This document shows, piece after piece, positions 2,214 to 5,200 of a stretch of DNA of 64,000 nucleotides. Source of the DNA: Candidatus Latescibacterota bacterium (GTDB lineage Bacteria > Latescibacterota > UBA2968); assembly GCA_965116885.1 (NCBI GenBank), contig OZ220741.1:4864001-4928000 (forward strand). The letters are read 5' to 3'. A program made the translations under genes and the position numbers. The notes beneath the pieces were generated by a model. That model saw only the letters and a list, made by a program, of their open reading frames with translations. It made no database searches and was not told where the DNA came from. Every line of letters begins with the position of its first letter. The stretch's first letter is position 1.

Positions 2214-5200
2214 TTAATCGTCTATCGGCAACCCCACAAATAATCGACTGTATTCATCTGTCAATGGATCGCGCTCGCCCTTTTGCGCTGCGCGGGCAAA
2301 TACCACACCCGGCTTTTCCGACCTGCGCGCCCGCGCCAAAACGCCATATCCACCTGGCGCACTCTGCGTTTCCAGATCGCTCTGAATCGCCAGCATCTCC
2401 GCCAGCGCATTGGCCAAACCCCAGCGCGCACCAATCGCCCGCGCAAAAAGCTCCTCTGGCGTCAGCCCCTCTCGAAAACCGTGCTTCAAGGGCGTAAATC
2501 CACCCTGGTCATTCCGCGTCACGCCCTGGGGAGCCACATAAAGTCTAACCTGCTGCCAATTGGCACGCGCACCACATGCCACCAGAAGCGCGGGAATCCC
2601 GAGATCATCGTCGTCATATTCGCGAAACTGCGCCAACACAGCCGACACCTCATCGGGATAATCGCGCCAGACATCTGGGTCATCGCCCTCTGGCGGATCG
2701 GGCCAATCGCGCGACGAACCGATAAACGCACTCATCGACGCACCTGTCTTGCGCGTAGCATCAAAACCCCGATCCCACAATCGCGCAGATAGATCCAATG
2801 CCGCCTTCGAGCCATCGCGCGCCATTGCAGCCGCCATCCAGTCCATCACCTGATACTTATCGACAAATAACCCCTTTCGCTCAACCTCATCGCCGACAAT
2901 CTCCGCAATCTCCTGCAACCCCTCGTCCGTCATACTCATATACGCCAGGCCAAACAGCGCGTCGTGCATCGGGTGTACCTTCTCCCGTGCAATCAGCCCT
3001 GGATCCCGATTTAAGTGAGCTACTGCCGACAGATGTTCTTCAGCCGACCGCTGTCCCTCTTCAGTCACCGGCACAAAAATCGCCACCTGATCGCCATCAA
3101 AATCCATATTCATCATCTTGCAAATCGCCACACTCACGCGCACAGCATCGCCTTTCACGCGTACCGGACGACACGCCACAAAAGCCATTGGCGAAAACGC
3201 GGGATTGCGAAGCACCACAGTCCATAACTCAGCCATAGCCGCATCCAGCGCTTTCTCCGCTTTTTTTGACCGCCTATCCACTTCTTCAGTCCCCACCTCT
3301 CGCGCGGCAAACGGCCCAAACAACGTCCACGCCATCTCTTCGGGCACACCGACCTGATCGTATCGCAATTCAGGTGCAGGCACAGCCACTGAACGCCCGC
3401 TGAACAACGCGCGCGCCTGAAATTGCAAACGCGACAACTCGCAAAATGCGCGAACTCGCTCAGACAGCGTCTCGACCACACGATCCACCAATATATCTGG
3501 CGCGCCATTGGCAATCATCTCACTCAAGCGGTTGTTGGCCTCTCGCAATTCTCGGGGCACATCTCTCCCACTCACATGAGTCAACGAATGCCCCGGCAAC
3601 CACGGATGCGGAACCGAACGCGCAAGCGCGACATCCCCACTGCGCTTCAACGAAAACTCGATGCCGCGTTCATCCAGTTCAACAGCCACCCCACCTTTTG
3701 ACAAATGCCCAATTAGCTCATCAAACTGAGGGGAAGGCGCATTAGGAGTAACAGGTCCCGCAACGACGCGGTCAGATAGAGTATCGGCATCATCTCGATC
3801 TACCGCGCACGTATTGAACAAATCGCCAATCACCCCAAAAGCACCCGCTTCTCGCAACGCCAAAAACTCTGTCTCGCCCAACCCCTGGCTTCGCTGATCT
3901 AATTTTACACTTCCGGGAACGGCTTGGCGAAGATCTGCGGCGGTTTGACCTAACTCTCGATCTCGTTTCCCCAGCTTCACACCAGCCTGAATTTTATCCG
4001 CCGCCAAATGCACCGTGCGTCCCCAATACACCCACCCTACAGTGGTGCGACGCGGCAGCGTATCCCCATTTAGCGTCAACGCCTCCATACCGTCTTCTGC
4101 CAGCTCTAAACCTTTCAAACGAGCGCGTATCTCATCGTCTTTTGGCGCATTGAGCGCGGGAATAATAACCGGCTCCCCCTCGGCCTTTGCAATGCGCCCG
4201 ACCACAGCTTCGCGTACCTGTCCAATATTCAACCGCGACGGCAAACCACACACACTTACAATAAGCTCCACAGGCGTGCCATCCGGCAATTTGGGCATAT
4301 CCTCATCTCGCAAAATGCGCGACACCACCCCTTTAAAACCGTGTCGATTACTCAGCTTATCACCCGGCGCAACGCGATTGGGCAACATCATCCGGTTCGC
4401 CGCGGATTCGCTGATCACAACTGCGTCTTCATGTGTATCTCCATTCCACGCCATAAACGCGGTCAGCAAATTGTACCCCGTCCAGAAATGCGGATCGCGC
4501 GGTTCACACCCCGTTTGCACCAGCGCGGGTTCCGACTCCAAGACGGGTTTGAAACCCGTCTCTACATTGCCGTCATATTGCGCGTGATACGCGTGCCACG
4601 CGCCCTGTTCATCGCGCTGCATATCGGGACTCGGCGCGCCAATCCACTGCCGCATCATATTCACGCCCATCAAAACGCGATTGGTATCATTGTGTTCCAA
4701 AAACGGAACCACCGAAGCGCCTATCCCCAACCGCTTTTCAGGTGCATCGTCTTCAATCACCAGCTTGCCATCGCGAATAGTTGCCCCCTGAGCCACCTCT
4801 AAAATCCGCGCGAGATTCGGTCCCTCGGGCGTGCAATATGGACACACGCGCCCATCGTGCGACGGATGATAGCAATTCTCTATCCCCTCATCGGCCTCAC
4901 CGATAATTGGGATCAACGTCACCCGCCGCAAATGAACGTACATATCCTGCAAATTGGTCGCCTGCAAAGACTGTGATGTGGGTTCTTCCATAAAAAATGT
5001 GTGAATCCAATCCCCCAACGGCAACCATGTTTCAACGGCATCTCCCAGCATCTCTGGCATATTTTCCAACCGCTCGGCAATATAATCGCGCAATTGCTCC
5101 CCTACACACCGAATCTCAGCCCGCGCCAAATCCACATCAGTCGGCACGGGAACCACCGTTAAAAAAAAGCCATCTACCTTAAACCGTCCCCAATCGTCGG

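Follow-up and report, generated by a model that had tools for sequence, protein, structure and literature searches.

Introduction

YonO, encoded by the SPbeta prophage of Bacillus subtilis, is a single-chain RNA polymerase described as very distantly homologous to the multisubunit enzymes (PMC5467207), and Orf6 of the yeast killer plasmid pGKl2 is reported as an Rpb2::Rpb1 fusion whose subunits are presumed eukaryotic in origin and which lacks a sigma factor (PMC2919709). Here we analyse a 64,000-nucleotide stretch of DNA (the window) from a Candidatus Latescibacterota bacterium (GCA_965116885.1, contig OZ220741.1, positions 4,864,001 to 4,928,000, forward strand), in which a gene for a sigma factor of the extracytoplasmic function (ECF) type lies upstream of a gene for a reduced, single-chain beta::beta' polymerase. 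The polymerase keeps a homolog of the beta' clamp helices, and modelling together with comparative evidence makes it probable that this hairpin docks region 2 of the co-encoded ECF.

Like YonO as described, the window polymerase is one polypeptide of ~100 kDa with both barrels of a multisubunit-type polymerase. It is set apart from that description by its 23-33% identity to the host's own beta and beta' over hundreds of residues and by being always paired with an ECF. It resembles the published account of Orf6 in having the second-largest subunit half first, a size in the range of 980-1060 aa or so, and a loss of roughly half the parental sequence; unlike Orf6, the window family derives from bacterial beta/beta' and keeps a putative sigma dock. 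YonO and the killer-plasmid fusion are the nearest single-chain relatives in print, and neither is reported with a sigma.

Natural RpoB-RpoC fusions (PRK14844 and PRK09603, 2839-2890 positions) also carry beta and beta' in one chain and in the same order. Those fusions keep all domains, and the window polymerase scores 166-170 bits against their cut-offs of 4632 and 5372. Over the NCBIfam rpoB, rpoC and fused beta/beta' equivalogs as a whole, its scores are 113-170 bits versus cut-offs of 801-5372, indicating that it is not a canonical subunit.

The locus also resembles ordinary autoregulated ECF modules, with a two-domain ECF (regions 2 and 4) and its own promoter of the -35 GAAC / -10 GTC type. 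It differs from them in that the conserved neighbour is a polymerase core, the linker between regions 2 and 4 is strongly conserved, and no anti-sigma gene was seen in the two-gene loci. The available text of a paper reclassifying the ECF sigma factors contains no mention of a polymerase neighbour (PMC7826278), and a search of the open full-text literature, with subscription journals outside it, found no description of an ECF-linked fused polymerase family. A module of a sigma and a single-chain polymerase is little-known.

Results

The main features of the locus, by window position, are as follows.

2214..5393, minus strand: fused beta::beta' single-chain RNA polymerase, ~1059 aa (Pfam, hhalign, AlphaFold2 model)
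3444..3554, minus strand: clamp-helices (coiled-coil) homolog, polymerase residues 624-660 (alignment to host beta', models, predicted contacts)
3087..3110, minus strand: catalytic Mg-binding motif NMDFDGDQ, residues 772-779, in the beta'-type double-psi barrel
4329..4364, minus strand: beta-type barrel motif, residues 354-365, 12 residues after ISESAA
6643..7236, minus strand: co-encoded ECF sigma factor, 197 aa, TTG start, upstream of the polymerase (Pfam, TIGR02937)
7259..7284, minus strand: ECF-type promoter TGAACC-N13-CGGTGTC upstream of the ECF gene

The polymerase keeps the clamp helices of beta'

Residues 624-660 (RELREANN...RVRAF) are homologous to the clamp helices of bacterial beta'. 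They survive as an exposed antiparallel hairpin made up of helix 1 (624-638), a tip (639-642) and helix 2 (643-660). The initial annotation had matched this segment by eye to the beta' coiled coil, and comparison with the host's own beta' bears that match out. In BLASTP, a 51-aa piece centred on the segment's surroundings, searched by itself, found host residues 263-307 as its best match (14/45 identical, E 0.001), and the high-scoring segment pair of the full-length protein (118/510 identical, E 1e-24) begins at residue 621, opposite host 263. With a profile of 27 family members, hhalign aligned 383 columns to host beta' (probability 99.9%, E 8e-32), beginning with 624 opposite host 264. The alignment is colinear from the hairpin to the barrel and bridge helix, the hairpin lying N-terminal to the switch-2 stretch and the NADFDGDQ barrel, and a signature, NNRL...AP-(D/E)-(I/V)-(L/I), is common to the hairpin and the host's beta'. 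The segment had been placed at 3443..3553 with no strand given; it is real, one base away, at 3444-3554 on the minus strand. Translation of 3443..3553 itself yields unrelated peptides from both strands.

Two AlphaFold models confidently show the helical hairpin that had been expected. In the AlphaFold2 model of the full-length polymerase (27-row alignment; predicted local distance difference test score (pLDDT) 81.9, predicted template modelling score 0.81), helices 624-638 and 643-660 have a block pLDDT of 87-91. The matches listed in a fold search with this model were beta/Rpb2 chains, with model residues 1-586 aligned along their whole length (for example 8i23_C: Z 28.2, root-mean-square deviation (rmsd) 3.0, 526 residues aligned), so we folded the beta' fragment, residues 585-800, separately. 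The fragment model, built from a separate 28-row alignment, has the same two helices (pLDDT 84.1). It aligned with bacterial beta' chains, among them 6xl5_D (Z 19.7, rmsd 13.9, 190 residues aligned, with model 12-216 on chain 103-486) and 5zx2_D, from Mycobacterium tuberculosis RNA polymerase bound by sigma H, an ECF (Z 19.3, rmsd 14.6, 201 residues aligned, on chain 93-561). An rmsd of ~14 Å means that the fragment does not superpose rigidly on beta' chains. By the aligned ranges, ~206 fragment residues span ~385 residues of E. coli beta', from just past the zinc domain.

The elements around the hairpin are mostly gone. The initial annotation held that the N-terminal Cys4 zinc finger, the lid and the rudder have no counterpart, and for the zinc finger and rudder this is what we found. 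No alignment reaches host beta' 1-263, which holds C66/C68/C81/C84, and polymerase residues 585-623 are cysteine-free. At the rudder, hhalign leaves a gap of 24-26 residues opposite host ~303-330 and then resumes with LFSGRSV matched to DYSGRSV. The lid has no aligned counterpart in the polymerase and is likely absent, short of proof. The N-terminal loss is not complete, since a short beta' strand is kept, in which LARSVPHPW (600-608) corresponds to host LAVPVTHIW (103-111) and H606, P607 and W608 are invariant in the family alignment. For the fragment model, the alignment to E. coli beta' opens at model residue 11-12 (protein 595-596), opposite 102-103, and ~15 residues separate the retained strand from the hairpin.

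The hairpin thus has the same position in the chain as canonical clamp helices, before SGRSV/switch-2 and the NADFDGDQ barrel, with the same hairpin form and, by prediction, sigma contacts on the same face. It differs in being part of a fused chain from which the zinc domain and rudder, the beta flap and most of beta' 1-263 are missing, and in its basic residues, which are replaced. Host R267, R271, K276 and K277 correspond to E, A, S and E in the polymerase; in helix 2, host R289, K292 and R293 correspond to D647, V650 and E651, positions that vary within the family.

The rest of the chain has the two-barrel core of a multisubunit-type enzyme

The polymerase has a beta'-type barrel with the DxDxD Mg site, a beta-type barrel and a bridge helix, the last reached by the hhalign alignment of the family profile, which extends through host beta' 735-766. 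D774, F775, D776, G777 and D778 are invariant in 27 sequences. Pfam matches are Rpb2_3 (151-209), Rpb2_6 (351-480; 134.2 bits, cut-off 23.4) and Rpb1_2 (738-796; 57.8 bits, cut-off 25.3). Against host beta, the family profile aligned over 458 columns (hhalign, 100% probability, E 2.5e-46), with family 97-557 corresponding to host 389-1251. Within that alignment, the ~240-aa flap of host beta (~785-1024) faces only polymerase residues 345-349, and hhalign found no aligned counterpart in the polymerase for host beta 1-388, which holds the lobes. The canonical alpha2 beta beta' omega layout with flap, lobes, zinc domain and rudder is therefore not that of this enzyme, whose length is ~40% of host beta (1254 aa) plus beta' (1367 aa); no alpha or omega gene was seen adjoining it. 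The same single-contig genome of 5.56 Mb also has a normal rpoC (1740 bits, above the cut-off) and a normal rpoB (a 1254-aa open reading frame, ORF).

The longest polymerase ORF is 2214-5423 on the minus strand, with a GTG start at 5423. All 26 aligned homologs start at M11, and GAGGAG lies 7 nucleotides (nt) upstream of this codon, so the start is probably the ATG at residue 11, at window position 5393. By eye, the last ~50 residues had looked like the first beta' trigger helix; the best BLASTP match had an E of 4.7 and lay elsewhere in the protein, and we dropped this assignment. An insertion of 24 residues at ~487-510 (window ~3884-3988, minus strand) has pLDDT <50 and is missing in 25/26 aligned homologs, and in a close relative's contig from one RNA library, 31 other letters stand in its place.

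An ECF sigma gene is linked to the polymerase gene at every locus compared

The co-encoded ECF consists of regions 2 and 4 only, which places it in group 4. It scores 66.5 bits for Sigma70_r2 and 54.5 bits for r4_2 in Pfam, and 122.5 bits against TIGR02937 (cut-off 42.9). The longest ECF ORF opens with a GTG at 7263. This codon falls inside the -10 element of the promoter, and we therefore place the start at the TTG at 7236, as in orthologs (MTPSD); AGGAGG precedes it.

We compared the window with 44 other loci, from four public contigs (two from Latescibacterota, one each from Poribacteria and Caldilineaceae) and from genome collections (40 loci). The four on public contigs were the family members among 80 loci from a search in which canonical rpoB predominated. 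An ECF ortholog, 43-81% identical, lies upstream on the polymerase strand in 44/44 loci and in the window. No more than 363 nt separate it from the polymerase match in 42 of the 44, the other two gaps being 796 and 2369 nt, and start-stop overlaps (4 nt in one locus) or gaps of ~30 nt occur between the two genes. Opposite-strand ORFs flank the pair on both sides in three of the four public contigs.

The linker between ECF regions 2 and 4 (residues ~99-133; window ~6865-6969, minus strand; RRREQPLE...VPGWMID..LGPD) is unusually conserved among orthologs, with P121 and D126 invariant and W123 at 90% or more.

Complex prediction places ECF region 2 on the hairpin

Polymerase residues 560-800 and ECF residues 8-112, each with its own 27-row alignment, were predicted to form a complex with an interface score (ipSAE) of 0.62 (0.61-0.63 in three runs), compared to 0.00 for the best of three controls. 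In the calibration of the method, the mark used for this score is reached by 116/157 solved complexes and 2/215 mismatched pairs, counts that are rough here since the alignments were our own. At least 93% of contacts recur between runs, with a partner pLDDT of at least 79. All confident polymerase contacts are within the hairpin (625, 628-629, 632, 636, 639, 641-645, 648-649 and 652), and those of the ECF are in helix 2.1 (26, 29-30 and 33) and in the DDLTQEVFLRVWN stretch (52, 55-56, 59-60, 62-63 and 66-67). A prediction of the complex was one of the checks proposed in the initial annotation; the prediction came out above its controls, and it puts the hairpin in contact with DDLTQEVF (ECF residues 55-62), the motif that had been named.

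Several contact residues are conserved. In a set of 35 non-redundant homologs (three loci whose polymerase sequence was extracted incompletely, L162, L163 and L166, were excluded, as were seven more at >90% identity), the commonest residue in the hairpin had the following frequencies.

L626, 0.89; N630, 0.91; R632, 0.94; M636, 0.79
P642, 1.0; L645, 1.0; L653, 0.97

The predicted contacts include R632, M636, P642 and L645 from this list. In the ECF, D56, Q59, E60, F62, L63 and W66 are invariant in 27 orthologs. Some features set the module ECF apart from its paralogs in the genome, where tblastn detects 12 ECF genes and the nearest paralog has 35% identity. W66 is found only in the module ECF among the 12, the others having Y, F or V. 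Residue 52 is V in the module ECF and acidic in eight of the other 11, and the VPGWMID linker is not a feature of the paralogs.

The ECF-type promoter ahead of the operon is conserved

The consensus TGAAC(C/T)-N13-CGGTGTC was found by regular expression in 36/45 loci from several phyla; among the nine misses, at least the window and one other locus (L145) have the promoter, which had been cut off by the choice of start codon. A position weight matrix (PWM) of 32 distinct sites, run over the 5.56-Mb genome, gave 27.4 bits for the window's own site, which was in the training set, and 19.6 bits for the next. In four of five other genomes, one match to the core pattern is the operon's own promoter. 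From these sequence matches, the operon itself appears to be the only supported target of the motif, and any further targets would be conjectural. A site at window ~60497 (17.3 bits) was considered as a second promoter; it lies inside a 1116-aa ORF and we take it as a chance match.

The operon is matched in part or in full, at 90-99% likeness, by contigs from four RNA libraries; these are assembled contigs and as such no proof of transcription, of its starts or of its strand. These contigs (from three studies) stop or begin matching at window 7288-7290, just upstream of the -35 element, indicating that the likeness among relatives ends at the promoter's edge.

Distribution of the family and genomic surroundings

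A sequence search found 576 relatives of the polymerase at E<=0.001, and most of the best 120 are ~1000-1070 aa long. They are named only 'hypothetical protein' where the source gives names. Genomes with a match were counted as follows.

Same genus: 20/20 genomes
Phylum of the window: 66/168 genomes (high-quality genomes, 19/52)
Phylum of the Poribacteria record: 30/151 genomes
Class of the Caldilineaceae record: 4/201 genomes

The distribution is patchy, with the family present in a fifth to two-fifths of the genomes sampled in two phyla. One genome of 8.4 Mb (G021) has two ECF-polymerase pairs (L154 and L155), with polymerases 46% and 38% identical to that of the window. Nine genomes (G181, G182, G188, G190, G202, G253, G274, G286 and G302) have frames of 1089-1108 aa that match the family profile at 1-799 only, indicating that the C-terminal part of that subgroup has diverged or been replaced. 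The ESM Atlas holds further clusters of fused Rpb2_6 and Rpb1_2 proteins, 1006-1787 aa long and for the most part called hypothetical. In PHROG, the polymerase matched families with 478-1216 positions whose labels are RNA polymerase beta subunit or unknown, and it matched no family of its own length.

One further gene lies between the ECF and polymerase genes of the window.

5466..6611, minus strand: 381-aa gene with only a sub-threshold TPR_12 match

At E 1e-5, tblastn found no match to it in the other 44 loci, and it belongs to neither a PADLOC nor a PHROG family. In locus L145, this place is taken by a different spacer of ~2.4 kb. Upstream of the ECF (window 7430-9404, minus strand) are genes for two proteins, one of 344 aa whose residues 43-77 form a DksA/TraR C4 zinc finger and one of 315 aa that is acidic and helical, a pair that is upstream in only three of the 44 other loci (L143, L147 and L148). 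Fingers of the DksA/TraR type bind the secondary channel of RNA polymerase, and a link between the 344-aa protein and the mini-polymerase is possible. PADLOC defence models gave no family for the polymerase or the 381-, 344- and 315-aa proteins and only weak CARF-labelled matches for the ECF (E 0.001-0.01).

Directly downstream of the polymerase (window 3-2068, minus strand) are genes for a BlaI/CopY-type repressor and for an M56 peptidase of the BlaR1 type that carries a fused TonB C-terminal domain, neither of which was found beside the polymerase in the other loci. Further upstream, at window 10453-12193 (minus strand), an MjaI-type restriction endonuclease gene (216 bits) stands beside that of an N6/N4 DNA methylase, forming a type II restriction-modification pair.

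Discussion

Sigma region 2 docks mainly on the beta' coiled coil, and the initial annotation had argued that retention of this coiled coil in so reduced a protein means that it still binds a sigma, most plausibly the co-encoded ECF. The fold of the hairpin, its conserved contact positions, the gene linkage and the complex prediction are all consistent with that claim, and we judge it probable, with binding itself a prediction of modelling. We suggest the following arrangement. The polymerase is a fusion of cut-down beta and beta' subunits in one chain of ~1059 aa, and its hairpin would hold helices 2.1 and 2.2 of the ECF, including DDLTQEVF...W. The ECF and the one-chain core would together be a minimal holoenzyme, and the ECF would read the TGAACY-N13-CGGTGTC promoter ahead of its own operon. 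In addition to physical binding, we infer that the promoter is fired by this mini-holoenzyme and not by the host polymerase with the ECF.

Several observations weigh against docking of the ECF on the hairpin. Clamp helices also dock factors of the NusG/Spt5 type, so that retention alone does not imply a sigma, and two of the PDB titles in the fragment fold search are of NusG or RfaH bound to E. coli polymerase. The tip helix of the beta flap normally holds sigma region 4, and the flap is missing from the polymerase; region 4 must then be held some other way. Sigma region 2 on the clamp helices is a textbook, much-solved pair, and the result of the complex prediction may show only likeness or memory. 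The core ECF contact residues are generic, and by sequence the ECF could equally dock host beta'. The genome has no second strong promoter by regular expression or PWM, and counts of the core pattern in five other genomes were 0-9, compared to 1-33 for a reversed-pattern control.

Conservation and covariation belong with these points. Mean column entropy was 1.73 in the hairpin versus 1.51 in the whole protein, the 71st percentile of 37-aa windows (low being conserved), and the most variable part of the hairpin is helix 2, at 1.99. Taken over its full length, then, the segment shows no special conservation. Poor conservation among homologs had been named as a result that would count against a sigma dock; individual positions (N630, R632, P642 and L645, at 91-100%) are well kept, and the hairpin overall is slightly less conserved than the average of the protein. 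Mutual information with average product correction over 35 pairs was dominated by clade effects, with a mean z of 0.31 for the interface block. The best covarying interface pair, 648-55 (D55 with K/R648, E55 with Q648), had a z of 3.3, at the 99.3rd percentile, which is within chance for 66 tries. The suggestion that divergent surface residues give partner specificity thus gains hints from W66 and the non-acidic residue 52, as compared to the 11 paralogs, and no clear signal from covariation.

The strongest alternative is that the hairpin is kept as universal clamp architecture or as a dock for NusG/Spt5-type factors, and that the ECF uses only the host polymerase, with the mini-polymerase as a sigma-free cargo like YonO. 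Clamp coiled coils are kept in all multisubunit polymerases, where they also dock NusG/RfaH/Spt5-type factors. A complete canonical beta' that carries the NNRL...AP motif too is present in the host, D56, Q59 and F62 are common to all 12 ECF genes of the genome, the flap that would anchor region 4 is missing from the mini-polymerase, and helix 2 of the hairpin is poorly conserved. YonO is also reported to act as a single chain (PMC5467207). This alternative accounts less well for the linkage in 44/44 loci and the window across Latescibacterota, Poribacteria and Caldilineaceae, which is tighter than is usual for a regulator and one cargo gene, and for the close spacing of the two genes. The predicted interface, which passed all controls, also argues against it, as do the family-invariant W66 and the conserved VPGWMID linker, both missing from the paralogs. 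Overall, we consider a sigma-free cargo unlikely.

A refinement of the preferred explanation, docking on the hairpin, is that the ECF docks both cores. The host core with the ECF would fire the operon first and the mini-holoenzyme would then take over, giving positive feedback. Host machinery must transcribe the operon at least once, there is one conserved promoter ahead of the operon and a single strong match in the genome, and the core contact residues are generic. The differences from the paralogs at W66 and V52 hint instead at specialisation, and we regard the two-core arrangement as improbable. That the hairpin is a chance similarity or a functionless relic in a decaying gene can be dismissed, since the E of 0.001 for the segment alone is joined by an alignment that continues from it for ~380 columns at 99.9% probability, an intact ORF, 576 relatives, catalytic motifs that are invariant in the family alignment, and a gene found in 20/20 genomes of the same genus.

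Going beyond docking of region 2 on the hairpin, we tentatively propose, as a possibility that we hold with less than even confidence, that the ECF and the beta::beta' chain form a self-contained, orthogonal machine, active at its own promoter and in no need of alpha, omega, flap, zinc domain or rudder. In it, region 2 would sit on the hairpin, tuned by residues such as W66, and region 4 or the VPGWMID linker would be held by a contact without precedent; the conserved linker may replace contacts that were lost with the flap, lid and zinc domain. The machine would have spread patchily among several phyla as an insulated or back-up transcription system.

If the hairpin docks the ECF, no smaller sigma-dependent polymerase of the cellular type would be known than this pair, with a chain of ~1059 aa and a sigma of ~197 aa. 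It would raise the question of where sigma region 4 is placed without a flap, and it would show which parts of the holoenzyme are needed for promoter-specific initiation, with the clamp helices staying while the flap, zinc domain and rudder go. It would also provide a compact, orthogonal transcription pair with a defined promoter.

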